A stretch of DNA of 33,965 nucleotides from a virus (taxonomy: Duplodnaviria; Caudoviricetes): IMG/VR virus record IMGVR_UViG_3300036987_000545, positions 1 to 33,965 of that record; one strand, 5' to 3'. Position numbers and translations under genes: made by a program. The notes beneath the pieces were generated by a model, which worked only from the letters and a program-made list of their open reading frames with translations, made no database searches and was not told the DNA's origin. Positions 5,419 to 29,964 of this stretch are shown piece by piece. Numbering within the stretch: the first letter of the stretch is position 1; each line of letters opens with the position of its first letter.

Positions 5419-8037
5419 TTATCCTTTTATCATCAAACGGTAATTCGCGCCGTCTGCCGCTTTGTATACTGTGCCCGCCGGGAGTAATGTATTCCAGTCC
5501 GGCAGGCCGGTGAGCTTGTAGGTAAACGACGCTGCATTGAATGCAAGGGAGAGGTTCCTGTTTGCCAAGGCTTCGGATGCAGACAGGAGGACCTGCGGGT
5601 TATTGCCGTCAGGTGGGTTTTCCCCAGAAACCATCCCGTCACCATATGGGTAACCATACGATCCTGACCATGGTGCATGCCATAATTTTGTCCATGTGCT
5701 GCCTGGGCGATGGAATACGCCGGTCCAGTCAGTCACCACTGATCCATTCAGATAGCCTTTAAGTGTCGCATCTATGCGAGTGACACTCCCACCTTCCCAC
5801 CAGTCTGCCATAGCCTTGCCACTGTGATAATTTCTGAAATCCTTGTATGCTGCCTTGAACTGTGTTGCGCTGTACGATATCTCGATTTCATCTACTGATT
5901 GTCCATCTATGGTCCCAGTGCAGACAAACTTGCCGGAATGGACCCCGAGGTGGGCTGCTATCTTGCTGACTACAAGCGCCCGATAGTCGTTGGCATTCTG
6001 CGAATAAGTACTTGAGCCTGGCGGTGAAATGGATAATGTGAGAGGCCCGGCCTCTATGCTTCCTCGGAACACTCCGCTATGAGCGTTGATCTCTCCTTCA
6101 AAATATCCAACCTTAGCTATTACCGCCTCTGCATTGATGATATCTGTGTTGATAAGGCCACCAGATATGATAGTCCCGCCTGCCCGTGCCGACAGCTCCA
6201 TCTCGCCCCAACCATCAAACCCCAGTTTGTCTGCCATTGCGTCTTTGGCTGCCAGCTCTGCATCAGACACCTGTGTCGTGGTCGCTGCACCAAGGACATT
6301 CCCGACCAGCAGCTTCCCGTCCGGGAACATGACATCTCCGCCTGCGAAGACCAGCTCGTCCGCCTCGACCGTGAACCGGGAGCCGAGCAAGTCCGCTGCC
6401 CTGAGTACCGTCCGCAGTGCATCGAAATCCTGTATGCTCGCTCCCGGTTTGAGCCGGTAGATACCATCAGTCCCCGGAGCATATACAGCCAGCACCATCG
6501 CAGAGCTTGATCCGGCAGCGTTGGACATGGCGGTCATTGTATCGGCGGTTATTTCCAGAGGTAAAGTAATCTGTAGGCCGAGAAAGGCAGAGCTGCCCCC
6601 GCCCTGGACCCGGGCGGCTACGCTATCCTTGAGAATGGCGATCTCGCCGCTGGCCACCGGAAGTGGGCCAGGTACTGCTTCGGTTCCCCACACTGACAGG
6701 TTGATGCTGTCTGCTGTACTGATGATCTGGCTGGCAAGGACTCCTTCTGCAGCGCTGGCCCGGCTTACCTCGCTGGTGATCCGGTCGGCCTCGATGACGA
6801 TCAGGCTGGCAAGGACTCCTTCTGCAGCGCTGGCCCGGCTTACCTCGCTGGTGATCCGGTCGGCCTCGATGACGATCAGGCTCCGGGTGATGGTGTCGGT
6901 TTCTGCCTGGGCCTGTACTGCCAGCTCGATACGCCTGGTGGATACATAGATCCCGGCCTCTGCCTTGGCCAGGGCCTGGTCTATCATCTCGGTTGCAAGG
7001 GATTCTGCCTCGCGGACCCGGAGCATGATAGCGTCGCTGGTCTGCACGATGTCTGAGACAGCTGCAATGACTCCGGCGTCGGTCTCGATCACCTCGGCCA
7101 CCTTGGAGCTGATATTGTCGTCGGTGATGATGACGCTGGCTACGTTCCAGCCGGTCCCGCCATCTGACTCTACGACCAGGGAGATCTGGTCGTTCAGGAT
7201 GTTGATCTTGGCCATGCTCCAGGTTTCAAGTTCCCCCGGGCCTGTGTCGTAATTCACCCACTTGCCAGATAGTGCCGACAGTGCAATATTCGCCTTGTTC
7301 TGGGTGATCATGGTCAGGTTTACTTCCTGCCCTCCGCCCCCGTCTATCAGCTCTCCTACTAAGGAGGTCAGGCCATCTACCGTGCTTTGTAAGGTGGATA
7401 CAGCCGTAATGTTGCCATCCAGCACGATATTGTTGGCAAGCAAGCCTTCCTCGGTGTCGGAGACAGCCTCCATCAATCCGGTTGCCAGTGTGGATGCCTC
7501 ACCTGACAGGGTGTCAATACGTGCAATGTCTGACATTTCTGAAAGGCCGTATGGGAATACCTCGCTGGATATAGTCTCATGTTCCAGCAGGAAGCCTGAA
7601 GAGAGCTTGGCCTTCTCTATGGCTCCATCCAGGATTGCACTACCGTCGATAATATCATCCAGGTCGTCGGTGGTAGGGACCCGGATCGCTTCTTCCCAGG
7701 TACTGACCAGGGTGCCGTCGGCATACTTGAGGGCTCTGGTCTGCCAGCCGTACCCCTCGCCAGCGGGGATGTACAGGAACCAGTCGGAGGGGTCTTCAAC
7801 AACTGGTGGTTCTGGTTGGAGCAGGGATTTCTTGTAGCGGATCTCCAGGAACCATTTTACAGCAGAGAGGTCAAAGTCTCCCATGACCCCGTTGATACGG
7901 TGAATCTCGGATTCAGCCTGGAGGATGCGGGTCTTGACCCCAAGGTATTCCCGGGAATCAAGCCCTCCGTCAAGAGTTCTGATGGAACGTACAACGAGGT
8001 CTTTATATCCCAGATCCTCTTTCTGTGACGCCATCAT
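5419..8037 (-). CDS. Long tail fibre / host-specificity protein
   Basis: Acidic coiled-coil and I-x-Q-T-x-D-x-I type repeats, GEINAHSGVFRGSIEA motif seen in tail-tip proteins, and a distinct C-terminal domain. Follows the internal virion proteins. Confidence 0.7.
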   Translation of the reverse strand: MMASQKEDLGYKDLVVRSIRTLDGGLDSREYLGVKTRILQAESEIHRINGVMGDFDLSAVKWFLEIRYKKSLLQPEPPVVEDPSDWFLYIPAGEGYGWQTRALKYADGTLVSTWEEAIRVPTTDDLDDIIDGSAILDGAIEKAKLSSGFLLEHETISSEVFPYGLSEMSDIARIDTLSGEASTLATGLMEAVSDTEEGLLANNIVLDGNITAVSTLQSTVDGLTSLVGELIDGGGGQEVNLTMITQNKANIALSALSGKWVNYDTGPGELETWSMAKINILNDQISLVVESDGGTGWNVASVIITDDNISSKVAEVIETDAGVIAAVSDIVQTSDAIMLRVREAESLATEMIDQALAKAEAGIYVSTRRIELAVQAQAETDTITRSLIVIEADRITSEVSRASAAEGVLASLIVIEADRITSEVSRASAAEGVLASQIISTADSINLSVWGTEAVPGPLPVASGEIAILKDSVAARVQGGGSSAFLGLQITLPLEITADTMTAMSNAAGSSSAMVLAVYAPGTDGIYRLKPGASIQDFDALRTVLRAADLLGSRFTVEADELVFAGGDVMFPDGKLLVGNVLGAATTTQVSDAELAAKDAMADKLGFDGWGEMELSARAGGTIISGGLINTDIINAEAVIAKVGYFEGEINAHSGVFRGSIEAGPLTLSISPPGSSTYSQNANDYRALVVSKIAAHLGVHSGKFVCTGTIDGQSVDEIEISYSATQFKAAYKDFRNYHSGKAMADWWEGGSVTRIDATLKGYLNGSVVTDWTGVFHRPGSTWTKLWHAPWSGSYGYPYGDGMVSGENPPDGNNPQVLLSASEALANRNLSLAFNAASFTYKLTGLPDWNTLLPAGTVYKAADGANYRLMIKG
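6729..6882. repeat. Perfect 75-bp tandem duplication (25 aa: SLIVIEADRITSEVSRASAAEGVLA x2)
   Basis: Copies start at 6729 and 6804 and are identical at nucleotide level. Confidence 0.95.
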
Positions 8038-11000
8038 TCCTCCCCGAGGGCATCCTGCAAGTATTGCAGGTATTCCTGAACCGCTAGGATTGGGAGCCCG
8101 GAAATACGTGCAAGGGTAACTGCTGCTTCGGTCATCCCTTTACCTGTATTTCCGCTCACCAAATTGTATCCTGAACTGATCATTGATTCAATAACTGGGT
8201 ACATGCCTGAGCCCGATTTGTAGTACGGTCTCTTGGTGACCAGGCTCTTTACAGCCTGTGATACAGGCCCGGATACGAGGGGGAGGGAAGCGAACGGCTG
8301 GCTTATCGCGTAGAACATCCAGTCCTGCCACCACTGGTCGTCATCTTCCTTCCGCTTGTCCCGTCCGAATCCCTTTCTGATCACTCCCAGGGCCATGCCA
8401 CTGACGACCATGCCGGCAGCGATACCGAAGAACTCGCTGTAGTTCTTCTCGCTCAGGGCATGGGGCATGTCGAATGCCATCTGCTGGAATACAACATTAA
8501 GCTGTGATCCGAACTGGGTGAAGGCCCGTTTCCATTCATGGGTATCCTGGAACAGGGGAGCCATGTCTATCGCCCTGGCAGAGGGTTGGCAATGCCTGGT
8601 TACATAGTCAGCTCTCTCGATTGCCTGCTCCTGGTTGCCGTGCTTTGCCATCTCCTTGTTGTACACTGCTCTCCATCCGAGAGCCACCATCCATGTCTGG
8701 GAGAACTCCAGGCCCTTCATGCCTACTTCGCCTATCTTCTTGACAACCTTCTCGTATCCTTCCGGGTCCATCCGCTTGATCTGCTGCCAGAGGGGGTCAG
8801 GGTTGTAGTTGCGGAGGGTGATCGAGAGAGCCTTGGTCTCCTCCATCCAGACCGTTGGATTCCTCATCATGTCCGCTGCGGTTCCGAAGAGCTGCCCAGG
8901 GGCATAGGCCAGGTATGGCCAAGGGGTGGTCATAAGGTTGTTCAAGGCAGAAGCAAGCCTCCAGGAAAGAGCAGAGACTGCCACGAACCCCCTGGCCCTC
9001 CTGAGAAGCTGGTCGGATACGTCCGCTCCCTGGCGTCCGAACATCTCCACGGCACGGGTGTGAGCTATGTTGTGGATATGGTTGTCCACCACCTTGAGCC
9101 CTGAGTCCCCAGCCATGTTCTTGATCATGGTCCTGATCTTCTCTGCTCCATGTCCCTTGTATACACGGTTCAGCCTGTCCACGTACTCGCCCATGGCTAT
9201 GAGCTGTTCCTGGGCGTGAGTCGCTTCCATCCAGGTCTTGAACAGTCCCAGTCGTATCGGAGCCTGGTTGGTCAGACCGATGTTTATGCGCTCCTTGGCC
9301 CATCCATTCTCGGGGGAGGCCTTCATGTATGATGTAGACCCATCGGCACTGGCGTTCCTGGTGAGGATGTCGTTCACAACCGATTCAGTGACATTCTGGG
9401 TCAGCCCCATCCTGAGCATCGGAATATAGTTCTCCTCCTGCCTGAGTTCCTCGTTGGTGAGCCTGATGATCTCCTTGTTGAGCCGTGGGAACTCTGTCGC
9501 GTAATCCTTGGCAATGAGTTCCATGAGACCTTTTTCATCCGCAGTAAGCTCGGTCTCCGCAGCCTTGAGAACGGCATGGAGCCGTGGTTCTGCTATCGCC
9601 CGGAGGGTCTTGGAGTCATACAGGAACTTCTTCTCGTTCACCTCGTCCAGCAGCATGCCAAGGAGTGCATCCCTGGACTTCTCGTTCCTTGCGCCGGCAA
9701 CGAACATCATTATATCATCTGCGGTATAATGGACATCCTTCCCATTGAAGAAAGCACCTTCGACCTTGATCTTCCTGGTCAGCTTGTCAGCAGTGATGTT
9801 GTGAGCCTTCATGTATGCCAGAACAGGATTGGCCCTGCGCTCAGTCTGCCGCAGCCGTTCCTTGTAATGCTTCTCATGCTCATCCACCAGCAGGGTCCAG
9901 TTGGGTTTATCCGGATTCTTCTTATCCAGGACATACTCGATGAACCGCTCGGAATTCATGGTTCCCAGGATCAATCCATACTTGGAATTCAATCCTTTGA
10001 GGATCTTGCGCTCCTCTGCCGATCCAGGAGCATTCTGGTCCTTGTACTTGGGATTTGCCTTGAGCCCTCTTTCCACCTCGTCCCGATGGTTGTAGATTGC
10101 CATGTTCCGGACGTTCTCCTTGACCTGCCAGCTCGTCCTGCCGGCGGCGTAGATCGCTTCCATTGCCTTGTTGAGCCTGAGTAGTTCTGAGTAGGTCCAA
10201 TCCTTTAAGGGTTTGTCGTTGATCTTGTTCACCAGGTTCTGGGTCAGAATGTTTTCAAGGCCCGGGTGTTCCCGGAAAAGCTGGGATATCTTGGACCAGT
10301 TTAGCGGAGGTTCGACGATGCGGCCGGTCTTCCGGTATCCACCTGCTTCCGTCCGTTCTGTCTCCCACTTCTTGTTCCGCAGATAGTCCTTGATCGCCCT
10401 GAGCTGGGTCTTCTGCTCGTAGTCGATCTTCGCGCCCTTGCGGATAGGCTCAAGGATGTTCGCCACCAGTTTAGCCCGGACTTCCTTGAGCTTGTACATG
10501 GCCCGGATCTCTTTGGCTGCCAGCTTCGATTCTTCCCTGGCGCTCTTGAGGGCTTCGGCAAGTGCCTGGCCTTTGAGCTTCGAGGTATCCAGGGACTTCT
10601 CCCGGTCTGCCAGCTTCTTTCTATCAGACTCCAGGCGCTCGATGTATTCCTTTATCTCAGGTTCAGTGATGGTGTCGTTCTCGATCTTCTCCTTGAGGTT
10701 CTTGTCCCTAATGTTGTCCAGGACCGCCTGCCTCTGGGCCACGGTCATGCCCTTGTACGCTCTGGGGAGTTTTATATCCCTGGGTCCGGTGACTGCTTCC
10801 TTCTCCACCCTTACTTCCTGGGCAAGGTCCAGATCTCCGGTCAGCTCCGAGGACATCTCCTTGAAGGCCAGTTCGCTCTTGCGTATGGATGAAAGCACAG
10901 CCCTGCGGACCGTTGAATTCAAGGGCTGACCCTTCTTGCCGTGGGATATCACAGCTCCCAGTACAAAGGGGTGATTGGCAAGCATCTTCTCGATGCTGGT

Positions 11001-14000
11001 CTTTCCCTTCGTCTCAGGGTCGTTCTCTGCCTTGATGCGTTCCCAGAGGTCAGACAGGAAGGCTTCCAGGTTCTTGCCCTCGGATAGTTGGCTTGCGAAC
11101 TTGCCCCGGTTCTGGGTGTATGCGTCGGGTTCGGAGTCTTCCGGTTCGAATAGGGTCTTGGGTGTTGCTTCCGTCATCCCCTCCGGAGCGAACCACTGCT
11201 CCCCGGAGAACCTTGGCTTGCCTCCGATAGTGTCAGCCCACTCAGTGAAAACCCTTGCTGATTCCGGGTCTTTCACATCGTAGTTGATGTCAGCCTTGCC
11301 GTAGTATCCACCCGCAGGAGGGGAGGGATGATCAGATACCCGGACCAGGTATTCTCCGTTGACCTTGTAGTACCTGGAGAGTGAGGAGCGGGAATACTGG
11401 ACTGAATACTCCAAGCCCCTGGAATACAGCTCGTCCTGCACAGTAAGGGAAGCTTGCTCTACAGCTTCGAACAGGTAGGTTCCCTTCTCTGCTATCATGG
11501 TCATCGCAGGGGTGATGGGCATGGAGTGGACAGTCTGGGATTCAACAGGTTCAGCAGAGTAATAGGTCATCCTGCTGTTCTCTGCGAACCGTTCCGCTTC
11601 CGCTTCCGAATCGAATACATCAGATCCTATCCGTCTGCCTTCGTCGGGGGTTCCAGTCTCGACAAGCATCCAGCCTTGCATGGGAAGCTCTGAGTCTGCC
11701 ACCTGGGCTCCGTACTTCTTCCCGAAAGAGTTGGCATAGTCAACAAGCATCTTGTCATAGAAGCCTTCCATGCCTTCCTTGCGTGGCATGGACGAGCCTT
11801 CATCCTCGGTCTGCATCCTGGTCCACGTGCGGTCTACGATCTTGCTGATCTGCTCATCGGAGTGTTCTCGGCTCAGAATATTACGGACGATACCTTGCAA
11901 TGCTTCTTTGCTGTTGACCGACTTTCCACTAACCTCCAGGAGTTCACCTCGCCTACGAGCGTCGGCTTCGATGTCAACACCACCAGCTACGCCACCCCTT
12001 TGCTCGGTGACAGCAACCTTCCATCCTTCTCCTTCGCGCTTCCAGGCAATCTCCTCTGAACCCCAACGATCAAACTGTACCGCTCCAGGTGTCCAGGACA
12101 CCGTGTCATACCCCTTCTCGACAGCCTCGCGTAGGATTCGCTTGAATACGAACTCGTGCCAGGTCTTCTTGAAGGGAGAATCAGGAACGCCAGGAGTCAT
12201 CAAGCCATTTATACGCTTCTCAACGCTTTTCTCGGCAACCTCTTTGCTGGTGAATAATTTCCCAGGGTCATCTTCTGCAAACCAATAGCCAGGATCATCC
12301 TGTGATTCAACGATCTTGATATTTACTTCTGTCGAATACCCCTTCTTCTTCCCTTCCTGATGCAAGTCAGACTGGATCTCCTCGATGAACAAGGCTTTCT
12401 TGCCGTCTGATGTTACTCGGTCATTCAGGCGGGTGTGGGCGAGGACGTTGCGCTCGTCCCAGTGGCCGGATTGGTACTGTCTGTTGTACGCATCGCTATA
12501 CGCATCGTTGTATTGTTCTTTTTTAGCTATCTCATATCCCTCTCGTGCAAACTTTTCATCAGCCAATCCAATTTCATTCAAGTTTTCTTTAGCCCATACA
12601 TCGAATTCCGGAAATGGTTTAAGTTCGCCTACTTTCACTGGTAACTTAAACAACACCTCCCGGTAGTTCTCGCCGCCAGGGAGGGTGTACTGGGAGAACT
12701 TGGGAGGGTTGGGGAGGGGCATTGCAAGTGCCTGCTTGTTTAGATGATCCAGCTCACCGCGCAAGCGTTCCATTTCTACCGGGTCAGTGGTCTGCCCAAT
12801 TTCCCACTTCTTGTCTAGTATATCCTTTGTAAGTTTACGCCTGGCCCGTTCGCTATTCCAGCCTTTTTCCACTTCCTCGATCTGCAACCGGTTCCCCTGG
12901 ATATGCTCCATCACCTGTGCAGGGGTCAGCTTCTCGTCGGTGTCCAGGAACTTGTCCAGCCCGGTCCACTTCAGTTCCTCAGCCTTGACCCCGGCGTTCT
13001 GGAGCATCTTGAGTATGCTGTTTCCAGGCATTGGGCCTTTGAGCTTCTGGGAGATTGTTTCTTCGGCTTTGTAGATCCAGCCATCGTCGGCCTCAAAGTA
13101 GATCCTGTTGGTCTCGTCGAAGGTGACATTCCTTCCGGAAGCATCCTTGATCCCGTAGCTGGAGAACTTGGCAAAGATGTTGTCGGTCGGCCCACCGTCC
13201 CTGGCGTTCATCAGGATGATGCCGTCATGGCCTTCGTCCCGCGCTGCCTTGACTGCCTCAAACCACCGTCCGGTCACGCCATCGGCAGCCTGATGCCATG
13301 CACCACCACCCCAGTCGATGACCTTGGGGTTGTCCAGCTTGAGCCATAACTCAAGGACTCCTCCAGCAGGAGGGGCTGGGTCGAAATCATCAAGCCCTGC
13401 GTACTCGGCTATCCTTTTGGTTGTCTCAATGCTAGGGAACTCTGTGTAGTGATCCTGAATTTCACCTACCAGCTTCCGCCTCTTGTCATCCAACCTGTCG
13501 AGGAATTTGGTATCAGGGTGGGTTGGTCCCAAAGCATCAATCTCTGCCTGGATCTGTGTCAATGCGTCATTCAGGACAGTTCCCATCTCCAGGTAAGCAT
13601 CAACGTACCTTTGCAGACGATCAACTGCTTCGTCTGATGCCCCTTTGGCATTTCCGTCAGCCACCAGCCTGTTGTACCATTCGGTGTTCTGCCCAGTGTC
13701 TGGCACATACGCATGAGCTGTATTGATGTTTCCACCAAAGAAGAATGCTATCTTTGCAGATCTTGCTCCGGTAAAGGACCCCCTCAGATCCTCCCTGAAA
13801 CTATCGAACTGATCTACGTTCCTGCCGGTTCCGTGGAACACCTTGGCAACCACCGGCTCCCCGGTCTGGAATGTATTGGAGGCTTTCTCTATGAGCTGGT
13901 CGATCCCGCTGATCTTCTGGACAAGATCACTGGCTTCCTTCGCTTCGTAGACAGCCTCGGTCTTGTGGTACTCGATCTGCTCGGAAACCGTCCTGTCGCT

Positions 14001-17000
14001 AGGTATCCAGTATCCCAGATCCATAGCCAGTTCACGGTCTTGCTCTGTCGCGCTTTGTTCGGAAATACCCTTGGTCTTCATCCACTGAAGGGTGCGCTCC
14101 AAGGTATCATCGGTCTTATAGGCAACTGCGTTCTGCTGGTGTTTCTCCAGTGACCGATTGTACCACCCCTTCAAATGGTTCAGCGCACCGAGTACGGATA
14201 TCTCAGAGTTGGTCGTCTCCCGGTAGTACCCCGAGGCATTGAGGTCAGACTCCTGCGCGATGGACAGGATGGACTGGAGGTTCTTGTACGATGAGTCATC
14301 GACAACCTTGTGGCCTTCGGACCATCGGTCGAACTCCGGGTCGCCGGCCTCGAACATGATCGTGCTATCAAAGTCCTGCCCGTCGTAGAAGCGCCGGATA
14401 TATCCCAGTGCCTTTGCTGGATTCCCGTCAGCCTCTATTGTCGCAGTCCTTTTACCGTCCCGCATCTCAACCCATGATGTCCCGCTGCCCTGGATTATTG
14501 TCTTGATCACGCTCCACTGTTTCGTGGTAGGCATCCTGGACATATCGGCAAGACCTGAGTTGGCATCCATACGGATTGCACCCATATCAATGAACGCTTC
14601 CATTGAATCGTTTCTGCCTTCTGGAGCGCCAGGCCAGTCTATTTCTCGATGATCGGTTGCTCTCTCATGCTTCAGGTAATCACGGCCTTTATCAACAACA
14701 AACATGCCATTCTTTTTCTGGTATCCTGTTGCTTCATGCCTGCCCGAGAAGTCCAGCATGGTCCCATCAGGCAGGACATATCCTGCTTCGTAGACATCCC
14801 TGGTAGTTCCAAAGGTCTCTATGGCTGCATTGAAGGCTTCCTGTGCTTCAGGGGTTATGTCTTCGGGCTCGAACAGGATAATCGCTTCGTCAGCAGCAAT
14901 ATCCTCTGATGAATACGGACGGATTGACTTCCGCTGGTCCCTGGAAAACCCCATGCGGCTTGCAGCGTCCCTGGCTTCTATCTCCCCTGCGGTTTTAGTG
15001 TATGCCTGGAAGGGATCTTGCGGGGCTGGAACCTTTGCTCTTAATTCGTAGAGCTTCCTATACAGTTCCTTGTCTCCATCCTTCTTGGCCTTTGACATTT
15101 GATCTGAGTAAAACCTGTATGATGCTGCGTTTTCATCCTGCATCTTTCGCTGCATCTCAGGGGTCGATCCCCGTGCAAAACCTTGGACTTTCTGTATGGC
15201 ATGCTGGAGTTCATGCACAAGAGTGTTTTTGTTTATTTCGCCAGTCTTTCTTGAGTAGCCAACTCCGATAGACGGCATGCCATAGGGATTATCCTGGAGC
15301 CATCCATTTTCCGTGTCAGGAAGTAGCGTTAGACCGATACGGTCAATGCCAGGGTATGCCTTGAACAACTCCGGGTTGCGGTAAACACCGCCCACAGTAT
15401 CAAAGGTTTTATTCCCTTGTTTCATGTCCTCCCTGGTTCCCCAGGATTCTATCTCGTCTCGGGGGATTATTTCCCCTGATGGTACTTCCGTCCTCCACAC
15501 GCCGTCATACTTGCCCTGGAACCAGCCGGTCTTCTGCCGTATTTCTTCTCCATCCACACCGGAGGCCAACATCTGCTTGGCCTGAGCAAGGGCTGATCTT
15601 TCTTCATCGGTCAGTACAGCGTTCTCTCCGGCGTACTCGAAAAGAATGCGCGGGTCGCTGGTGTCCCAAGTGCCGTAATTGTTTACGCTTTTGATCTGTG
15701 TGGGGTAGAAGGCTGCTATCTGCCCGAACGATCCGTCAGGATGGATTTCTATTATCCCGTCCACCCCTTCTGATTTCAACTGCTTGTCCAGCTTGTCTAT
15801 GAATGAATCCCTGGTCTTCATTTCCACCGAGCTGTCAAACAAGTCTTTACCGGACAGCTCCTTGAACCTGGAATAGTAGTCTTTCTCCATGATCGGATTC
15901 TTGATCGAAGCATACAGAGGCATGACATTCGGTGTTTTGCCAAGATTCCTTTCAGTGGCTGCCATTGCGAATGCCGATGCAACAGCCTTCTCGCCAGTCA
16001 GGTAAATTTTGCCTTTGCCCATTCCAAGGTTGCGCTTGCGGCCTTCCTTGTCTTGCGCTATTCCAAGGCTGAATTCTTCGATGACACTGCCTGTACCGTG
16101 GTAAACCTCTACAGGGTTGCCATTGCCGTCAATAATTTTCGAGCCATCATAAAATGCTTTGAATTTGTCGCTTCCAATATCACCAGCAGGCTCGAACAAC
16201 AGGAACTGATCCTTCTGCTTCCTTGGGGGAAGATCAGCCTCGTCAAACAAACTCGCAGTCTCGGGCTTGGTAGGGTTGTCGTAGAACTTCGCAACGTCAT
16301 ACGGAGTGGCCGAATTCAGGGTCTTTCTTCCCACAAGCTGCCCATCCGGTCCGTCTATGTGCAGGGTGAACGATCCCTTGGCATTGGCTGCAATGATCGC
16401 TGCTGCATCGAAGGAAGGAACCCCAAGCGAATAGGCCACGCCGGCATTGAAGTCCACCCGGACCGCTCCGGTTTTCTTCATGAAATCCTGGGACGGGTCT
16501 TTCTTCGAGATTCCTTCGATGGAGGCAACGGCTCCATGCTGGAGCATCCTGATCCCGCCCTGGTAATCACTAGTCGTCCCCATGCCGATATCTTTGCCTG
16601 AGAAGTTGAGCATCCGTCCGTCAGACAGGATGTATCCCGCTTCCTTCGGGTTCGTGGTGGTTCCGAACTTCTTTACGGCAACATCGGACAGGGTGCGTTC
16701 GTCGAACAGGTCATCGGCCTCGAACATCACTCGTGCAACAGGACGGTACATTGATTCGCTGACACGGAAATCCTTGTGCTTGCCCTTGTTCTCTACGAAC
16801 CCGAACCGCTTGTAAAACTCGACAAGCCTTGCTTTCGACGATCCCCATTCGCTTGTCGGAGTCAGTTCAAGCTGGATTCCATGCTTGTCAGCCAGGGCTC
16901 CAGCTTCCATCATTGCGGCGGTGGCGAGCCCTTTTCCTCTTAGTTCCTTGTTGACCTTAATGGTGACACTTGCACTGTTTTTCCCAGGATAAATGTCTAG

Positions 17001-20000
17001 AGTGACTCCTTCGCTTGCCCATTTCTGCCTGAGCTGCCTGAAATCATCTTCTGTTTCCGGCTCGAACATCATCGGGGTATCGGTGTCCTGTGATGCCGTT
17101 TCTTCCTCGACCACAATGTCGGATACAGGAAGGCCTGCTTCGACCCTGAGCTGCCGGATGATTTCAGGATCCGTGGCCCATCCCTTGAGCCGTTCAATCT
17201 CGGATAGGATCTCGTCTATCTTCCCCTGGACATCGCCGACATTCTCGGCATCAACCGGGATATTGAGCCCGTATTCCTTGGCTATCTTTGCCCTGTCTGC
17301 TTTTGACAGGGTTAAAGCCCCGGTCAGGGTGGTCTTCATCCTGGTGAGGTCGTACAGCTTGTCTGCCAGGAGTTCTGACAGGATCTCGTTCTGCCTGATC
17401 ATCTCCTGGTATGATTCATCGGAGGCGAATCCGTCCAGGTCGGTCTGTGCGCTATCGTCGCGCTGCTGCTGGGACCTCTGGACCATGGAGGCGCGAACCA
17501 TGTCGATGAATACCAGGAGCTTGTCCGCGGTCATCTCGCGGTGTTTCCTGATCCCTACTGCCTGCAGGGCTTCGTCTCCCCTGGATGCTTCGGCAATCGC
17601 TGCAGCCTTGTCTGCCCGGATCTCCCCCATCATGAACAGTCCGTACAGGGAATCCCCTGCGTACCGTGCAATCACCCATCCGGCCCGGCCTTTGTCGTTC
17701 CGCAGAAGGCCGTTCTCCTGGGCTGCCTCCTCTGTGTAGCTGGTGTGCCGGAAGAAGTGGGCAAAGTCCTGTTCTGTTCCTTGGTTATCAAGGATGTTCT
17801 GCTCTGCATCGAGTATCAGCATTTGATCAACAGTGTACCCGTCTGACTCCTTGAACACCTGGACAGGAACCTGGGGGGCTCCGACACGCTGTGCAAGGTC
17901 TGCCCGGTGTCTTCCTGTTGCTATGATCCGCTTTCCATCGGATGCACGTTCCCATACAAGGATCGGGTTTGCCGGTTCAGTCCGGTACGACTTTCCCGGA
18001 AGCTGCTTGACGACACCACGCTTGTTGGCGTTTTTCTTGAACTGTGGAATTACTTCGTTGTCCACGAAGATTGAATCAGGCGACACCCATTCAACAGGGA
18101 GGGCCGTCCCCTTCATTGATGGAGGGACAGGCTGCTGTGTAACCGTCTCATCGGTGGGACTTTCCTGGATGGTCTGTTCTGCCTGCTTCGCTTCCTGCTG
18201 CATCTCCTGGTTGATCGCTGAAAGGGGAGAGGACTGGCTTCCCAACCATTCGTCGAATATCGCTGCAAGCTCAGGGCTTACCTTGTTCTCGGAGGACAAG
18301 GCCTTCCACATGCGGACGATGTATTTGCCGATCTGCTCGAAGATACCCCTGAGCCCCTCGTGCTGGACCGTACCGTAGGCTTCCCAGGTCATCACATCAT
18401 TGACAAGTTGTTCCTCTTGAGCCCTGGTCCAGACCCCTCCGGAGACGCCGTATGCCTGGTCCAGTTTCTTGCCTGCCTCGGTCCCGATGGTAGTTCTACG
18501 GTACATGTGCAGCATCTCATGGTGCAGCGAGAGGCTATTGGAACTCTTGGACAGGAGGATCAAGCCCCTCCCGCTGTCCGGATCCACATAGAATCCGGCC
18601 CTCGCGCTGGTTCCTTCGACTTCCCCGGTGGCCTGTGCCTTGGTCCATGCGTCCTGCAGCTTTGCATCATCCCGGACGAACAGCTCTGATTCCATGTACT
18701 TGTCCAGGAACTGCTGCACGGTGAGCCCTTCGGCGGCCGCCCTGGTTTCCAGCCTGGCTGTTTCAAGTTCTATCTGCAGCCTGGAAGCATCCGGGAACAT
18801 GTCTATCGCCCTGGCCCGGAACCTCTGGGTTCCTTCGTCCCCGGACTGGTTGAACCACTGCGCTCCATGCTCTATCCCGCGGGGGTTCATCTTCGTGGCC
18901 TTCTCCACGAGAGCCCGGGCCATCGCACTGGATGCTTCGTTGGCAATGATGGGGATCCCCGCATGGCTTGCTGCCAGCTCCATCAGGGCCTCGCTCGAAA
19001 CTCCTGCGTAGGCATCGGAGAAGTTTGCGTCCTTGAGCAGGAGCTGCCTGTTCCCTTTTGAATCCACCTGGATCTCGTACCCCAGTTTCCCCGTAGGCCT
19101 TCCGGTCTCAGGGTCTCCAATGAGGAACTGTGCCTCCACCGATCCATCGTCGGATTCATTTATCCGTACATCCCTGGTGTGAAGGTGTCCGGAGACGTAC
19201 TTGGCATCCAGGGGCTTGTTCTGCTCTGCTTCCAGGCTGGTCTTCTTCTGCTCCCGCTCCCACAGGTCGTTCAGGGCTTTCTCCTGCTCCTGCGGATCCA
19301 GCTGCCCCAGGACTTCCTTGACGACTTCCGTCTCCTTGGCGTTCTTGATGAAGGTCTGCCTGTCGGAGGCTTTCGCGTACTGCTGGAGCCCGCTGAGGGC
19401 CTTGTAGTCCGATGCGACACCCATAGGGCCGGATACGACGCTGAACCAGGGAGTGGCCAGGAAAGCGCCCTTGCTGGCTTCCAGCATGTCCCGGACGATC
19501 CTTTCGGTTCCCGGTCGGTCGATCTCCTTGCCCCTGAAATGCTCCATGTACTCTGCGGCGATGATATCCGTCAGGCTGGAGGCCAGGGCATCCAGGGGCT
19601 CCACGATCAGACCTTCTTCCAGAGTGGACACAGCTGTCCTGGTGAAGTGCCGGAGTATTATTGTCGGAACCACACCTTTGGCGAATACCTTCTGCGATAT
19701 CGCGTTCGCAAGGCCCCCGGATACACCAGTGGCAAGCCCCCGGACCATGGCATCGGCACCCAGGGCGGTGTTGATGATACCAGTAAGGGCTCCGGATATT
19801 GCAGCCCCTATGGTAGCCACATCATTGTCGGCTCCGTTCTCGATGAGCCGGAGGTATTCATGCCCCACTGATCCCAGTCCCATATCCACGGCGGAATAGA
19901 GCTTGGATGCGGCCGCAACACCCTTCATGAGGGCAGGAGTGACAGCCAGACCCATGGCTCCTGCGACGGGAGCCACTGCAGCTCCTGCGATACTTAGACC

Positions 20001-20546
20001 TACAGCACGGACGATCTGGGGATAGTTGTTCACGCCAGCCTTGAGGGACTCGATGAATATGTTCCGGTCATCCACGTTGTCGGCGTATTTCTCCATCTCC
20101 CTGCGGAGGAAGGCCAGCTCCTGGGTCAGTTCAGGGGTCAGCCCCCCTTCCTTCTGAGCCCTGCGGCCCAGGTCGTTTATCTCCCTGGCCACGTTTGCCA
20201 TGTGGAACTGGTCCACCACGGCCCTTGCAGCGGTCTTCGGAGGCATGCTGGCACCGAAGAACCCGTATATGTACGAGTCCAGGTTCTGCATCGTCTCGGT
20301 TATCGGTTTATTGTGGATCCTGGAGAACTGGATCGCGGAGGCCCACTTCCATACATCGTCATCAGGATTCGGCGCGGTGGACAAGGATTTATTGATGATG
20401 TCCAGCTCCCAGGGCTGTACGCTTACACCCTGGAAGGTGGTGGCTTCCTTGACCTTGCGGTAGGTATCATCGACATTGAACTCGAACTTCTGCCCGGAGG
20501 CTGCCTTCTCGTATGCCTTGCTGGTGTCGAAGCTGAAATCGCTCAT
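8034..20546 (-). CDS. Giant (4170 aa) internal virion / large polyvalent protein
   Basis: Third gene after tail tubular B, in a gp16-like position. Contains HEMLH peptidase motif, ParB-like domain, GNAT, two ART-like domains, LPD23-like domain with HELQH, and helical/hydrophobic N- and C-terminal regions. Confidence 0.9.
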   Translation of the reverse strand: MSDFSFDTSKAYEKAASGQKFEFNVDDTYRKVKEATTFQGVSVQPWELDIINKSLSTAPNPDDDVWKWASAIQFSRIHNKPITETMQNLDSYIYGFFGASMPPKTAARAVVDQFHMANVAREINDLGRRAQKEGGLTPELTQELAFLRREMEKYADNVDDRNIFIESLKAGVNNYPQIVRAVGLSIAGAAVAPVAGAMGLAVTPALMKGVAAASKLYSAVDMGLGSVGHEYLRLIENGADNDVATIGAAISGALTGIINTALGADAMVRGLATGVSGGLANAISQKVFAKGVVPTIILRHFTRTAVSTLEEGLIVEPLDALASSLTDIIAAEYMEHFRGKEIDRPGTERIVRDMLEASKGAFLATPWFSVVSGPMGVASDYKALSGLQQYAKASDRQTFIKNAKETEVVKEVLGQLDPQEQEKALNDLWEREQKKTSLEAEQNKPLDAKYVSGHLHTRDVRINESDDGSVEAQFLIGDPETGRPTGKLGYEIQVDSKGNRQLLLKDANFSDAYAGVSSEALMELAASHAGIPIIANEASSAMARALVEKATKMNPRGIEHGAQWFNQSGDEGTQRFRARAIDMFPDASRLQIELETARLETRAAAEGLTVQQFLDKYMESELFVRDDAKLQDAWTKAQATGEVEGTSARAGFYVDPDSGRGLILLSKSSNSLSLHHEMLHMYRRTTIGTEAGKKLDQAYGVSGGVWTRAQEEQLVNDVMTWEAYGTVQHEGLRGIFEQIGKYIVRMWKALSSENKVSPELAAIFDEWLGSQSSPLSAINQEMQQEAKQAEQTIQESPTDETVTQQPVPPSMKGTALPVEWVSPDSIFVDNEVIPQFKKNANKRGVVKQLPGKSYRTEPANPILVWERASDGKRIIATGRHRADLAQRVGAPQVPVQVFKESDGYTVDQMLILDAEQNILDNQGTEQDFAHFFRHTSYTEEAAQENGLLRNDKGRAGWVIARYAGDSLYGLFMMGEIRADKAAAIAEASRGDEALQAVGIRKHREMTADKLLVFIDMVRASMVQRSQQQRDDSAQTDLDGFASDESYQEMIRQNEILSELLADKLYDLTRMKTTLTGALTLSKADRAKIAKEYGLNIPVDAENVGDVQGKIDEILSEIERLKGWATDPEIIRQLRVEAGLPVSDIVVEEETASQDTDTPMMFEPETEDDFRQLRQKWASEGVTLDIYPGKNSASVTIKVNKELRGKGLATAAMMEAGALADKHGIQLELTPTSEWGSSKARLVEFYKRFGFVENKGKHKDFRVSESMYRPVARVMFEADDLFDERTLSDVAVKKFGTTTNPKEAGYILSDGRMLNFSGKDIGMGTTSDYQGGIRMLQHGAVASIEGISKKDPSQDFMKKTGAVRVDFNAGVAYSLGVPSFDAAAIIAANAKGSFTLHIDGPDGQLVGRKTLNSATPYDVAKFYDNPTKPETASLFDEADLPPRKQKDQFLLFEPAGDIGSDKFKAFYDGSKIIDGNGNPVEVYHGTGSVIEEFSLGIAQDKEGRKRNLGMGKGKIYLTGEKAVASAFAMAATERNLGKTPNVMPLYASIKNPIMEKDYYSRFKELSGKDLFDSSVEMKTRDSFIDKLDKQLKSEGVDGIIEIHPDGSFGQIAAFYPTQIKSVNNYGTWDTSDPRILFEYAGENAVLTDEERSALAQAKQMLASGVDGEEIRQKTGWFQGKYDGVWRTEVPSGEIIPRDEIESWGTREDMKQGNKTFDTVGGVYRNPELFKAYPGIDRIGLTLLPDTENGWLQDNPYGMPSIGVGYSRKTGEINKNTLVHELQHAIQKVQGFARGSTPEMQRKMQDENAASYRFYSDQMSKAKKDGDKELYRKLYELRAKVPAPQDPFQAYTKTAGEIEARDAASRMGFSRDQRKSIRPYSSEDIAADEAIILFEPEDITPEAQEAFNAAIETFGTTRDVYEAGYVLPDGTMLDFSGRHEATGYQKKNGMFVVDKGRDYLKHERATDHREIDWPGAPEGRNDSMEAFIDMGAIRMDANSGLADMSRMPTTKQWSVIKTIIQGSGTSWVEMRDGKRTATIEADGNPAKALGYIRRFYDGQDFDSTIMFEAGDPEFDRWSEGHKVVDDSSYKNLQSILSIAQESDLNASGYYRETTNSEISVLGALNHLKGWYNRSLEKHQQNAVAYKTDDTLERTLQWMKTKGISEQSATEQDRELAMDLGYWIPSDRTVSEQIEYHKTEAVYEAKEASDLVQKISGIDQLIEKASNTFQTGEPVVAKVFHGTGRNVDQFDSFREDLRGSFTGARSAKIAFFFGGNINTAHAYVPDTGQNTEWYNRLVADGNAKGASDEAVDRLQRYVDAYLEMGTVLNDALTQIQAEIDALGPTHPDTKFLDRLDDKRRKLVGEIQDHYTEFPSIETTKRIAEYAGLDDFDPAPPAGGVLELWLKLDNPKVIDWGGGAWHQAADGVTGRWFEAVKAARDEGHDGIILMNARDGGPTDNIFAKFSSYGIKDASGRNVTFDETNRIYFEADDGWIYKAEETISQKLKGPMPGNSILKMLQNAGVKAEELKWTGLDKFLDTDEKLTPAQVMEHIQGNRLQIEEVEKGWNSERARRKLTKDILDKKWEIGQTTDPVEMERLRGELDHLNKQALAMPLPNPPKFSQYTLPGGENYREVLFKLPVKVGELKPFPEFDVWAKENLNEIGLADEKFAREGYEIAKKEQYNDAYSDAYNRQYQSGHWDERNVLAHTRLNDRVTSDGKKALFIEEIQSDLHQEGKKKGYSTEVNIKIVESQDDPGYWFAEDDPGKLFTSKEVAEKSVEKRINGLMTPGVPDSPFKKTWHEFVFKRILREAVEKGYDTVSWTPGAVQFDRWGSEEIAWKREGEGWKVAVTEQRGGVAGGVDIEADARRRGELLEVSGKSVNSKEALQGIVRNILSREHSDEQISKIVDRTWTRMQTEDEGSSMPRKEGMEGFYDKMLVDYANSFGKKYGAQVADSELPMQGWMLVETGTPDEGRRIGSDVFDSEAEAERFAENSRMTYYSAEPVESQTVHSMPITPAMTMIAEKGTYLFEAVEQASLTVQDELYSRGLEYSVQYSRSSLSRYYKVNGEYLVRVSDHPSPPAGGYYGKADINYDVKDPESARVFTEWADTIGGKPRFSGEQWFAPEGMTEATPKTLFEPEDSEPDAYTQNRGKFASQLSEGKNLEAFLSDLWERIKAENDPETKGKTSIEKMLANHPFVLGAVISHGKKGQPLNSTVRRAVLSSIRKSELAFKEMSSELTGDLDLAQEVRVEKEAVTGPRDIKLPRAYKGMTVAQRQAVLDNIRDKNLKEKIENDTITEPEIKEYIERLESDRKKLADREKSLDTSKLKGQALAEALKSAREESKLAAKEIRAMYKLKEVRAKLVANILEPIRKGAKIDYEQKTQLRAIKDYLRNKKWETERTEAGGYRKTGRIVEPPLNWSKISQLFREHPGLENILTQNLVNKINDKPLKDWTYSELLRLNKAMEAIYAAGRTSWQVKENVRNMAIYNHRDEVERGLKANPKYKDQNAPGSAEERKILKGLNSKYGLILGTMNSERFIEYVLDKKNPDKPNWTLLVDEHEKHYKERLRQTERRANPVLAYMKAHNITADKLTRKIKVEGAFFNGKDVHYTADDIMMFVAGARNEKSRDALLGMLLDEVNEKKFLYDSKTLRAIAEPRLHAVLKAAETELTADEKGLMELIAKDYATEFPRLNKEIIRLTNEELRQEENYIPMLRMGLTQNVTESVVNDILTRNASADGSTSYMKASPENGWAKERINIGLTNQAPIRLGLFKTWMEATHAQEQLIAMGEYVDRLNRVYKGHGAEKIRTMIKNMAGDSGLKVVDNHIHNIAHTRAVEMFGRQGADVSDQLLRRARGFVAVSALSWRLASALNNLMTTPWPYLAYAPGQLFGTAADMMRNPTVWMEETKALSITLRNYNPDPLWQQIKRMDPEGYEKVVKKIGEVGMKGLEFSQTWMVALGWRAVYNKEMAKHGNQEQAIERADYVTRHCQPSARAIDMAPLFQDTHEWKRAFTQFGSQLNVVFQQMAFDMPHALSEKNYSEFFGIAAGMVVSGMALGVIRKGFGRDKRKEDDDQWWQDWMFYAISQPFASLPLVSGPVSQAVKSLVTKRPYYKSGSGMYPVIESMISSGYNLVSGNTGKGMTEAAVTLARISGLPILAVQEYLQYLQDALGEE
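11145..17066 (-). repeat. Nine dispersed copies of an inter-domain motif hh-F-E-[P/A/Y] within the giant protein
   Basis: FE codons at 17061-66 (MMFEP), 16719-24 (VMFEA), 16191-96 (LLFEP), 15636-41 (ILFEY), 14868-73 (ILFEP), 14349-54 (IMFEA), 13092-97 (IYFEA), 11466-71 (YLFEA), 11145-50 (TLFEP). Confidence 0.8.
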
Positions 20547-22654
20547 TTAAGCACCCATTTCTTGCTGGCTGAATCCCAGTTGTACATGCCCAGGATGTAC
20601 CTGAGCTTGTCCTCGGTCGTGGTCCGCTTGTCCAGCTCCCGTCTCAAGGCAGGTGCGGAGGGAAGCCCTGCGTCCCCTGGCCACTCACTGAACTCCTCTG
20701 GCTTGGTCAACCTCTGGCCGGCAGGAGCCGGGGAGAGGGCTGGATCCCGGCCCGAAGGGGCAGGAGGAGGCGGTTCATCCCGGCTATCCAACCGGGACTG
20801 GATATCCGCTGGCACTCCTGCTGGGGTTGGCCGCTGGTGTATCCGGTCTATCTTCCTGTCATTCCCTGCCGTGTCACGCACATGGAGTGAATACTTGTCC
20901 TCCATCGACCTGGCGCTCTGGTTGAACTTGAAGTAGTACGTGCTGCCATCCGGAGAGGTGAAGGTCACCCGGCCATCGTCTCCCACCTTCTCGGTCAACG
21001 GGATGACAATGCCGTACTCCTGGGCAGCTATATCTTTCTGCCAGCCTATGAGCATATTGTAGGAGCTGTTCACCGCTCCTGAAATCCTCACCCCGCCCTG
21101 GGCTCCGATGTCAACCGCAGCATCCAGCTTGCCTTCCTCTGACATGGATCCCATCCGGACCATGTTCAAGAGGAAATGGGTGTCCCTCGTCGCGCCATGC
21201 TTGAACTCCATGTTGCGGATAAACTGAATCTCCTCAGCCTTCCACACGTTATGATAGTTCTGAGCCCATTCCTCGGCTTCCTTGAGGGTAATGTTCGGCC
21301 TGGCTCCAGCCATGTTTGTCAGTGCATCCTGGAAGTCCCTGACCCTTCTGTTCCTTTCTTCAAGCGGCATCTTGTTCAGGTCAGACCCTTTGTTGTTGTA
21401 ATCCTTGGCAAGACTATCAGCCAGGAGCTTCAAGGGCTCGGGCATGTGTCCAAGGATGGAATTCCTGTTCTTGGAATACTCGGACAGGTTCTCCCCGCCG
21501 GATTCGACATGGAGCGCATCCAGGGAGATAAGGGAATCCATCATGGTTACCCGCTCCCCGGTCGCAGGGTTCACGTATCCATCTTTGAAATTCCGAGCAA
21601 CCTGGTCCATCATTGCCCGGTTCGCGTGGCTGGCTTCCTTGCCCCCAGATGGACCGGCCTTCAGATCTTCTATGCGCTTGTCAGTAGCATCCAGGAGCTT
21701 CTTGCGGAGGTCCTGCCTGTGGCTCCAGTTCTCCAGGCCCTTGTACCCTGTCAGATCTCCTTCGACCAGCAGCTCCTGGCGTAGCATCATGAGCCCTGCA
21801 AGGTTCTCGGTGTTGTTGTTGTACTGCCTCCAGAAGAAGGCATCCATGGCCTGGATCTGCTCGTTCCGGTACGACACTGCCAGATCCTCGGCAGCCTTAC
21901 TTGAAATGTTCCTTCCCTTGAGGAAGGCAATCATCGACCCTTCTGGGTCCGGGTCGTAGTATCCCTTCCTCTGGTCAAGGAACCCCTCGAAGTCGGCCTT
22001 GGCCTGCTTGTCGTTGGCTTCCATGGTCTTGTACATGGTGTCCAGCGCGGCGTTCTTGACATTCAGCGGCAATTCCTTGTCCTGCTGCAGGCGCTGGATC
22101 GTAGCCTCGTAGCCATTCTCCTTGGCCGCTTCCATGATCCCCTCGACGCCGGCCTGGGCCTTCGCTGCCCTGAGCCGCTCGCCCTTCCAGGTATTGTCGA
22201 ACGGGGTCTTGTTTATGATCTCGGTTATCTGCTCGTACCGTTGCTGTGCGGACAGCCCCGGGTTGTTTGAAATAGTATACAGTGCGTTGTTGAAATCCTC
22301 TTCGGCCAGGGCAAGCTGCTTCTTGTTCATCGCAAGCCCGACCCTCAGCTTCATCTCCGGTATCATGGAAGCTATCCCGGACTTGACTGCACCTTTGGCA
22401 GGACCGTAGGAAAGCTCCTCGGCATAGTCATTGAGCCCTGCTACGAACTCATCGAAGGATACCTCGAAGTCATCCGGGACAATCTCGCCCTTGTCTATCT
22501 TCAGGAGGTAGTCCGTAGTCTTCAGATCCAGGTCTGCCTTGGCTTTGATCTGGGCGGACTGGACCCGCATCTGGGCTATCCCTACGGCGTCACGGAGGAT
22601 GGTGTTCGACAGGGCTGCAAGCCCCTCAAGAAGGCTGCCGGTTCCTTTACTCAT
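20543..22654 (-). CDS. Internal virion (ejection) protein, gp15-like by position
   Basis: 703-aa helical protein between a gp14-like gene and the giant gene, with ATGA overlaps on both sides. Confidence 0.6.
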   Translation of the reverse strand: MSKGTGSLLEGLAALSNTILRDAVGIAQMRVQSAQIKAKADLDLKTTDYLLKIDKGEIVPDDFEVSFDEFVAGLNDYAEELSYGPAKGAVKSGIASMIPEMKLRVGLAMNKKQLALAEEDFNNALYTISNNPGLSAQQRYEQITEIINKTPFDNTWKGERLRAAKAQAGVEGIMEAAKENGYEATIQRLQQDKELPLNVKNAALDTMYKTMEANDKQAKADFEGFLDQRKGYYDPDPEGSMIAFLKGRNISSKAAEDLAVSYRNEQIQAMDAFFWRQYNNNTENLAGLMMLRQELLVEGDLTGYKGLENWSHRQDLRKKLLDATDKRIEDLKAGPSGGKEASHANRAMMDQVARNFKDGYVNPATGERVTMMDSLISLDALHVESGGENLSEYSKNRNSILGHMPEPLKLLADSLAKDYNNKGSDLNKMPLEERNRRVRDFQDALTNMAGARPNITLKEAEEWAQNYHNVWKAEEIQFIRNMEFKHGATRDTHFLLNMVRMGSMSEEGKLDAAVDIGAQGGVRISGAVNSSYNMLIGWQKDIAAQEYGIVIPLTEKVGDDGRVTFTSPDGSTYYFKFNQSARSMEDKYSLHVRDTAGNDRKIDRIHQRPTPAGVPADIQSRLDSRDEPPPPAPSGRDPALSPAPAGQRLTKPEEFSEWPGDAGLPSAPALRRELDKRTTTEDKLRYILGMYNWDSASKKWVLK

Positions 22655-23682
22655 AGGTTAAACCTCGGATCGAAGCGGGCTGTCAGGGGGCTTTGTAGAT
22701 ATGATGGCATTTGTGGATACGCCTGGTTGTTCATTGGCATCATGCCGCCAACCTGTAGCATTTCAGGAGTTGCCATTGGAGACATCGTTGGCAATGCAAG
22801 GCCTTTGAACTGTGTCTGCCCGAAACTATCCTTAAATCCTCCCCATAGATCCTGGGCTTTGCCCCCGAACTTCCGGGCATCGGATCCCCATATATCCATT
22901 TTGGGCGGGTCGAATTCCTTGAAGAATGTATCATCCTCGGTTAATGCTGTGTACATCTTCTCTCCGCCCATGCGCATCATCCCCAGCATGCCTGGCATCT
23001 GACCGTTGTTCATAGCTCCAAGCCCGAAGTTACCAAGGTCTAATCCGGCCAGCTTCAATCCTCCTATTGCTGTTGATCCTAAGCTGTAGACCGAAGCAGC
23101 CGTCTTCAGGAACCCGCCAAGTATATCAAGCCCGCCTGGCATGTTGTCTTCCATCTTGCTGATATTCTTGTTGAGCTTGGTCAGGTTATTCTCTCCCTGC
23201 TTCTTCCTGAACCTGGCATTCTCGATTGACATTGCCGTGTTCTCGCCGGTCATCGAGATGCTCTCTGACGACTTGGAGAACCAGTTGCGGAGAGCACGGT
23301 CTGTCTCGCTCAATGACGCCTGGGCTGCCATGTACGGAGAGCCTTCGGATATCCCACTGAGCCCTGAATCGGCAAGCGCGGCACTTTCAGCCTGGAACTG
23401 GTCGATGGATGCAGCCCTTGCTTGTTCTCCGATTGCATCGGCTTCCATGTTCGCCTGTTGCGCTGCAATGGCTGCCTGTCTCTGGGTTTGCGACCAGTCC
23501 TTCGCAATGGATTCGTCAAGGAGCTGTGCTTCCACCTTGGCTTGCGCCAGATCTTTCCTGGCTTCCTCGGCCCGGCCAGTAGCGCCCCCAGTCATGATAT
23601 TTAATATGTCATCCCCGTACTTGGATACTACCTTGGTAACAGGCTTGAAGATAGCCTTGTAAAGGAGATTAGCAAGTCCCAT
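22651..23682 (-). CDS. Internal virion (ejection) protein, gp14-like
   Basis: Ala/Gln-rich coiled coil, ADSGLSGISEGSP motif, Gly-rich hydrophobic segment. Directly after tail tubular B. Confidence 0.65.
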   Translation of the reverse strand: MGLANLLYKAIFKPVTKVVSKYGDDILNIMTGGATGRAEEARKDLAQAKVEAQLLDESIAKDWSQTQRQAAIAAQQANMEADAIGEQARAASIDQFQAESAALADSGLSGISEGSPYMAAQASLSETDRALRNWFSKSSESISMTGENTAMSIENARFRKKQGENNLTKLNKNISKMEDNMPGGLDILGGFLKTAASVYSLGSTAIGGLKLAGLDLGNFGLGAMNNGQMPGMLGMMRMGGEKMYTALTEDDTFFKEFDPPKMDIWGSDARKFGGKAQDLWGGFKDSFGQTQFKGLALPTMSPMATPEMLQVGGMMPMNNQAYPQMPSYLQSPLTARFDPRFNL

Positions 23683-26809: not shown

Positions 26810-27066
26810 CAGAATACTCCTTCAGCCAGCTCGCGGAGTTGTTTAAGGGAAAGACCCTCAACCTCGCTATGCTTGGCAAGCTTGTTATCGATGATCAACC
26901 TGACCGCTTCTTCCTTGGTCAGTTGCCTTTTCATTTCACCTTCGGCCTTTATGTACAAAGCCTGGTTGGCCCGTACAACCGATTCGTCAAGTTCCACGAT
27001 CTCCCCGGCCTGGAGGATCCGCCCGAGGATGTGGTTGCGGTGGGTCATTGTCGCCTGCACTCTCAT
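26809..27066 (-). CDS. Hypothetical 85-aa protein with possible Rho-N/HeH-like C-terminal helix
   Basis: AAGGAG RBS before ATG 27066, preferred to 27105, which lies next to the hairpin. Ends EGLSLKQLRELAE. Confidence 0.65.
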   Translation of the reverse strand: MRVQATMTHRNHILGRILQAGEIVELDESVVRANQALYIKAEGEMKRQLTKEEAVRLIIDNKLAKHSEVEGLSLKQLRELAEGVF

Positions 27067-29962: not shown

Positions 29963-29964
29963 GA

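Follow-up and report, generated by a model that had tools for sequence, protein, structure and literature searches.

Four-residue hh-F-E tags are the joints of swappable modules in a giant podophage protein and likely cut sites for its own peptidase-like domain

The window analysed here (33,965 bases, the whole of IMG/VR record IMGVR_UViG_3300036987_000545) is the provirus of a BPP-1-like podophage, i.e., a short-tailed bacterial virus, with an estimated completeness of 62%. Its minus strand encodes a split terminase, a portal, a probable scaffolding protein, a capsid, tail genes, two probable internal-virion open reading frames (ORFs) and an ORF of 4170 amino acids (aa), an order that agrees with the surroundings of the homologous gene in BPP-1, JessA, AF and Carin1. 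The giant protein encoded by this last ORF is our subject. Its homologues have a common N-terminal scaffold ending in a domain with an HExxH motif, then a variable cargo region, then a C-terminal scaffold (about 1040-1440 aa). In the giant protein, nine short stretches of the form hh-F-E (the tags) divide the cargo into eight modules. These tags are exact joints of swappable modules, and we propose that they are likely cut sites for the scaffold's own HExxH domain. The features of the gene are as follows.

8034..20546, minus strand: polyvalent protein of 4170 aa, last of three probable internal-virion (ejection) genes as judged from gene order
18822..20546, minus strand: conserved N-terminal scaffold, aa 1-575, homologous in family members
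18177..18821, minus strand: HExxH peptidase-like domain of the scaffold, aa 576-790, candidate reader of the tag (conservation; homology to Bbp10)
18507-18521, minus strand: HEMLH motif of the scaffold domain (aa 676)
18411-18413, minus strand: E712, conserved downstream Glu and candidate third ligand of the scaffold domain
17127..18134, minus strand: domain without a tag in front, common to the three E-type relatives (phrog_21 region, E 1e-8), which we take to be ParB-like from its GRHR motif; no Pfam match
17061..17072, minus strand: tag 1, MMFE
16725..17066, minus strand: module 1, GNAT acetyltransferase, 114 aa (PF13508, E 5e-6)
16719..16730, minus strand: tag 2, VMFE
16197..16724, minus strand: module 2, unnamed family, 176 aa, paralogue of module 5 (29%)
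16191..16202, minus strand: tag 3, LLFE
15642..16196, minus strand: module 3, ART-PolyVal ADP-ribosyltransferase (ART), 185 aa (PF18760, E 2e-18)
15636..15647, minus strand: tag 4, ILFE; the Pfam match to LPD23 starts one residue past its F
14874..15641, minus strand: module 4, LPD23 and cargo HExxH domain (HELQH at 15201-15215), 256 aa (PF18838, E 2e-14)
14868..14879, minus strand: tag 5, ILFE
14355..14873, minus strand: module 5, unnamed family, 173 aa (55% identity to L013)
14349..14360, minus strand: tag 6, IMFE
13098..14354, minus strand: module 6, ART-PolyVal-like with long inserts, 419 aa (PF18760, E 6e-7, slightly below the curated cut-off)
13092..13103, minus strand: tag 7, IYFE
11472..13097, minus strand: module 7, unnamed family, 542 aa (match to P0002 aa 96-667, between LMFE and LLFQ)
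11466..11477, minus strand: tag 8, YLFE
11151..11471, minus strand: module 8, unnamed family, 107 aa (matches in P0002, P0134, P0135 and P0141)
11145..11156, minus strand: tag 9, TLFE, beginning of the C-terminal scaffold
8037..11150, minus strand: conserved C-terminal scaffold, aa 3133-4170 (homologues; weak match to JessA gp39 and AF gp16, E 5e-6)

The original prediction, made from the letters of the window, had placed the F of the nine tags at aa 1161, 1275, 1451, 1636, 1892, 2065, 2484, 3026 and 3133, giving modules of 114, 176, 185, 256, 173, 419, 542 and 107 aa. Positions and lengths are correct, the F codons running from 17064-66 (first tag) to 11148-50 (last). Its caution that the total number of FE dipeptides is unremarkable was also justified (12 against 12.2 expected). 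The pattern [ILMVFYT][LMY]FE[PAY] occurs nine times, whereas 5000 shuffles yield 0.09 on average and never more than 2; it was defined after the sites had been seen. Because this count was picked post hoc, independent support has to come from the analysis of breakpoints in homologues. A de novo scan of the dipeptides of each protein put FE on top in the giant protein; among 13 homologues, FQ came out on top in just one, which shows how little power a single protein has. Two other traits on which the prediction had remarked are real but carry no signal: the TTCGAR codons at eight of the nine tags (the gene itself uses TTC for 122 of its 145 Phe codons) and a C-terminus of 1035 aa free of FE (2.24 expected, P = 0.11).

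Relatives were found by alignment-based scans; scans of loci with a single sequence gave none. The family set comprises 42 proteins, after dropping L017 (a 629-aa fragment) and 12 near-duplicates, and 40 of them contain 130 sites in the cargo region, with the consensus [ILTMV]-L-[FY]-[QE]. When cargo regions were aligned locally, 351 of 1890 alignment ends fell at most 5 aa from a tag in both partners, against a null mean of 1.3 and a maximum of 7 when the sites were shifted circularly 500 times. The pairs are interdependent, and a tag at an alignment end slightly raises the score, yet the excess is still above 200-fold. The pattern hh[FY]Q is found 107 times in cargo regions, where 10.3 are expected, and 2 and 0 times in the scaffolds. 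Modules also change place: the giant protein has the order GNAT, B, ART, LPD23, B (B being the family of modules 2 and 5), and L021 has LPD23, GNAT, ART. Module 1 shares 63% identity with a module of L021 that is bounded by FQ and stands at another position, and module 2 matches a tag-bounded module of P0134 from end to end. In their DNA, L006 and L007 share about 90% identity until TTATTCCAG is reached, and the identity resumes at TTATTCCAG 696 nucleotides (nt) later, i.e., one whole module, which places the crossover inside the codons of the tag. The check in homologues had been named beforehand as the test of the predicted cassette organisation, and the organisation withstood it: it is at the motif that modules are gained, lost and rearranged among homologues. 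That the tags are chance stretches or the ends of unrelated domains would agree with the ordinary count of FE; it is refuted by the breakpoint analysis, conflicts with the L006/L007 breakpoints, the excess of hh[FY]Q, the link to the scaffold and the all-E clade described below, and has in our estimate next to no probability. The avoidance of the tag in scaffolds was dropped as evidence, since the control patterns hh[FY]K/E/D are also depleted there.

A joint at which DNA recombines does not in itself require that the peptide be read. The tag could be the mere translated footprint of a microhomology used for in-frame shuffling, and this is what one might expect from L006 and L007, which differ by a 696-nt module with both breakpoints in TTATTCCAG, and from the over-use of TTA (28 against 9.7) and TTC (53 against 38.3) at the tag. 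But every codon of the tag varies synonymously (five Leu codons, TTT 18 times, CAG 59 times against 60.8 expected), with third positions varying freely; the amino acid swaps (Phe/Tyr and Ile/Leu/Met/Val) are conservative; and the conserved stretch spans only 12 nt. Furthermore, crossovers should mix the joints of donor and recipient, but the last residue of the tag is E at all nine joints of the giant protein, at 8/8 in P0134 and at 4/4 in P0141. A footprint without a reader is thus quite improbable to us.

This last residue is E throughout the giant protein and its closest relatives (P0135 has 2/2) and Q in most of the family: the other 41 proteins have Q at 107 and E at 14 of 121 joints, and the sister proteins P0136 and P0138 are mostly Q. 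In more distant giant proteins, we used the C-terminal tail of the ART as a fixed anchor and obtained 114 proteins with a parsable tail, based on 120 of 277 ART matches and 150 of 293 scaffold matches. The tails fall into two classes, I-L-[FY]-Q and I-R-[YF]-S/other. Among the matches listed, the Q-type tail occurs in 62 of the 66 proteins with the scaffold HExxH domain versus 4 of the 48 without it, where the 66 include family members assigned by their scaffold, the set without the domain includes possible fragments, and the counts ignore kinship. When the best match of an ART lies in the other type of scaffold, 45 of 52 such pairs have different tails (best-hit test among the matches listed); the closest relative of the giant protein's own ART among these matches (55%) ends in IRFA. 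Outside ART tails, tags show a modest excess in the distant set (46 against 26 expected for the Q class, 31 against 21 for the S class). On these sequence comparisons, the type of tag follows the scaffold and not the ancestry of the module. An Asn six residues before HExxH is found in 3 of 4 E-type and 6 of 73 Q-type sequences, hence also with Q tags; it is a weak lead that may go back to just one or two independent changes. A third private tag may be represented by joints that end in His (LLFH, ILFH and VLFH, in P0201, P0209 and P0004). The giant proteins P0015, P0017 and P0019 have 8-11 ART-PolyVal-type tails each, with endings that are largely protein-specific (xFS, RL[KRS] or mixed).

The synonymous codons, the association of the tag with the scaffold and the concerted change from Q to E favour a site that acts at the level of the protein. 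Among the three mechanisms first envisaged (a protease site, a threading signal or a microhomology joint), the best supported is thus a site in the protein that has the scaffold as its reader; crossover at the microhomology is real, yet alone it leaves three results unexplained. Sites that flank every module, go with the scaffold and change together call for a reader. Two HExxH motifs had been noted in cis, and both are present (aa 676 and aa 1778), but only the former belongs to the conserved scaffold: it is found in 13 of 14 proteins, the exception lacking its N-terminus. The latter travels with module 4, is found in at least 8 of 14 proteins, and relatives have zero, one or two copies of this module. 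The reader would thus be the scaffold domain rather than the cargo one. Its H, E and H are invariant and its downstream E at least 90% conserved in a 27-row alignment, the family keeping HExxH...W...E, and HExxH and the Glu are retained in 232 of 239 matches of the domain. It is homologous to residues 786-923 of BPP-1 Bbp10 (family profile, E 3e-25; tblastn with L035, E 2e-12). On balance, we consider it likely, if not strongly so, that the hh-F-E tags are cut sites for this peptidase-like domain, which would free the modules. Substituted forms of the motif (EExxH, QExxH, HDxxY) were seen in the scaffold domains of P0140, P0277, P0258, P0262 and P0226.

Several points weigh against such a proteolytic reader. 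Cleavage at the tags is so far a prediction from sequence. Two AlphaFold2 models of the domain, built on shallow alignments (26 and 27 rows), show a helix where the strands of a zincin are expected, and three fold searches with models of the domain gave no significant match. When PDB sequences were searched by profile, nothing came up, and reprolysin matches were weak and confined to 5 of the 27 rows. Two relatives, P0140 and P0277, have EExxH instead of HExxH and still contain 3 and 2 FQ sites. What the tag covaries with is the entire scaffold, so that its reader could lie in another part of it or in a linked gene, and the anchor-free uniformity of tags within proteins is 0.635, against a null mean of 0.565 and a maximum of 0.676. 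The crossovers and the TTA and TTC excess indicate a contribution at the DNA level. Finally, N4 vRNAP also has an HExxH domain, and the recombinant protein is described without degradation in the available text of PMC13434306.

Part of this evidence suits a tag that is recognised but not cut. It would be a signal for docking, unfolding or threading, with the scaffold or the ejection channel as its reader, and would pace the passage of a beads-on-a-string protein through the tail. Such a signal agrees with the conservation at the protein level and the covariation with the scaffold, as well as with the persistence of tags beside EExxH, the two models without a zincin fold and, in the available text of PMC13434306, the proposal that N4 vRNAP traverses the channel uncut, like beads on a string. 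It fits less well with the retention of HExxH and Glu in nearly all matches of the domain and with the cultured phages, where the tag stands directly before the HExxH domain; moreover, scaffolds must thread too, yet they are without the tag. We regard a threading signal as rather unlikely.

We also find it unlikely that the tags are cut by some other protease, which could be a prohead-type phage enzyme acting in trans, a protease of the host or the HExxH module of the cargo. Sites of the T4 gp21 prohead protease have the form L/I-x-E, which the tag, as L-x-E/Q, resembles; the 241-aa head gene of the window weakly matches a PHROG labelled 'protease' (E 1e-4), the provirus is incomplete, and an enzyme elsewhere would explain why EExxH relatives retain tags. 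Against a prohead-type enzyme, the strict pattern hh-[FY]-[EQ] is absent from the capsid, the scaffolding protein, the portal and the two upstream internal-virion ORFs (2 matches in 5925 aa, in the terminase small subunit and the tail). Many tagged proteins have no cargo HExxH module, and the same class of tag is found in spirochaete and proteobacterial phages, a poor fit to a host protease.

If the scaffold domain does cut at the tags, the following course may be envisaged. Like other internal virion proteins, the giant protein is presumably packed in the phage head and ejected. Cutting would have to wait until the protein is packaged, and most likely until it has been ejected, since cargo set free sooner would be lost. 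With no tag in front of it, the ParB-like domain would remain part of the N-terminal fragment. What follows Q/E is not limited to G/S (T, P, I, D, A and E are all common). Q/E is the most constant residue of the tag, but the next residue is Pro at 4 of 9 tags in the giant protein and 14 of 130 in the family, and for ordinary proteases this favours a cut before Q/E. The 9-nt coding stretch of the tag may serve secondarily as an in-frame crossover point, and a crossover within it would bring the acquired module with a site at both ends. More broadly, we give even chances to the view that the ejection proteins of Bbp10-type podophages are self-processing delivery cassettes, in which a zincin of the scaffold recognises a private code of four residues whose DNA is the recombination joint for plugging in release-ready anti-host enzymes. 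The codes would be L/F-x-Q in one class of scaffolds, I-R-[YF]-S in others and hh-F-E in this clade, the last perhaps acquired by a change from Asp to Asn beside HExxH. The tag makes predictions at the level of residues: nine sites that would yield ten products, a single candidate enzyme, and a difference between E and Q.

The tag also delimits four modules of unnamed families (2, 5, 7 and 8) as candidate injected proteins. None of them matches a named family in Pfam or NCBIfam, and modules 2, 5 and 8 have no match in PHROG; for module 7, the only PHROG match is partial, to a profile of 2564 columns labelled endolysin. A protein atlas contains unnamed clusters for modules 5 and 7, and module 5 has unnamed look-alikes of 161-203 aa, as a lead only. 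If the view of delivery cassettes is correct, uncharacterised injected effectors could be read from sequence by splitting at the tag. The giant ORF also contains QTDLDGF (aa 1035-1041) and ETASLF (aa 1430-1435), and P0010-P0012 contain QIDLFQ (aa 965-970); we take these to resemble the beta-clamp-binding motif QL[SD]LF, a form that the first joint has in some relatives.

The other genes of the window are listed below. Of the 13 genome records holding a relative, 7 are spirochaetes by title, from which we infer the host of the virus.

20543..23682, minus strand: two genes upstream of the giant ORF, probable internal-virion proteins by position, 703 and 343 aa, without the tag
23684..33471, minus strand: tail proteins, capsid (PF20911), probable scaffolding protein, portal (PF12236) and split terminase (Pfam and PHROG matches)
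31937-33471, minus strand: terminase large subunit, split into overlapping ORFs for the ATPase (278 aa) and the RNaseH-like nuclease (233 aa)
29243-29968, minus strand: probable scaffolding protein, the 241-aa head gene (best match phrog_3742, unknown; the 'protease' match is phrog_458)
5419-8037, minus strand: ORF of 872 aa downstream of the giant gene, with a direct repeat of SLIVIEADRITSEVSRASAAEGVLA and no match in Pfam or PHROG
2402-2866, minus strand: M23 peptidase, probably a lysis gene
1-1074, plus strand: tyrosine integrase, at the edge of the window

How does the giant protein compare with known systems? The class of polyvalent proteins and their proposed self-processing by an MPTase are already known: in its available text, PMC5512222 (Iyer et al. 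2017) defines these proteins and proposes that the MPTase processes them into functional units. The giant protein resembles the phage-type members described there, late-gene giants with ART-PolyVal, LPD23, GNAT and HExxH domains: it has several distinct conflict domains in one polypeptide, HExxH with a downstream Glu, and a gene among the virion genes. The text of PMC5512222 names no junction or cut-site motif, exact-joint shuffling or covariation of motif and scaffold, and its supplementary alignments may show the motif. According to the portion available of 10.64898/2026.04.10.717836, the LPD-bearing phi24B gp47 is found in virions. In the open-access literature, we found no paper naming the tag as a site, and the available texts of PMC3650047, PMC4819975, PMC13434306, PMC9024508 and 10.64898/2026.04.10.717836 are without it. 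New here are the exact breakpoint, the test that the tag goes with the scaffold, the E-type clade beside Q-type sisters and the cultured phages as test systems.

The scaffold domain is related to CLCA_X, a family of predicted zincins seeded on residues 700-1000 of BPP-1 Bbp10 and a Spirochaeta coccoides protein and described as sister to the self-cleaving CLCA proteases, with no substrate proposed for it in the available text of PMC3650047 (Lenart et al. 2013). Its homology to Bbp10 786-923 lies within this seed region. The giant protein reads HEMLHMYRR, which differs from the CLCA_X consensus HExxHxxxD, so we treat the domain as a relative of CLCA_X and not as a member. Bbp10 itself is internal virion protein D of the epsilon15/BPP-1 subgroup in the text available of PMC4819975. 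The giant gene resembles it as the largest and last internal-virion gene behind the tail genes, in the homologous HExxH domain and in the weak C-scaffold match to JessA gp39 and AF gp16. It differs in being twice as long, with eight modules instead of about one and with HExxH before the cargo (after it in the Bbp10 type). In JessA gp39, BPP-1 Bbp10 and AF gp16 (L044:6589-12708, L045:5778-11936 and L047:5088-11729), the cargo lies between [LF]-x-Q tags and is directly followed by the HExxH domain, and the cargoes of JessA and AF are homologous to modules 3 and 4. Since these cultured phages carry minimal versions between the same kind of tag, the question is testable now.

Compared by description only, from the available text of PMC13434306, coliphage N4 vRNAP gp50 is similar as a giant ejected multi-domain protein with HExxH, but it is obtained whole on purification. 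Prohead-protease systems of the T4 gp21 type differ, on the strict hh-[FY]-[EQ] pattern only, by having sites in capsid, scaffolding and portal proteins. There is also an analogy in logic with the polyproteins of RNA viruses, whose 3C and NIa proteases cut at sites such as LEVLFQ/GP and ENLYFQ/S. These look nearly identical to the hh-[FY]-Q tag, as an analogy only: a protease of this kind was not found, and the tags are not restricted to G/S after Q/E. If the view of self-processing delivery cassettes holds, the ejection proteins of this type would be a DNA-phage counterpart of these polyproteins, with a programmable payload.

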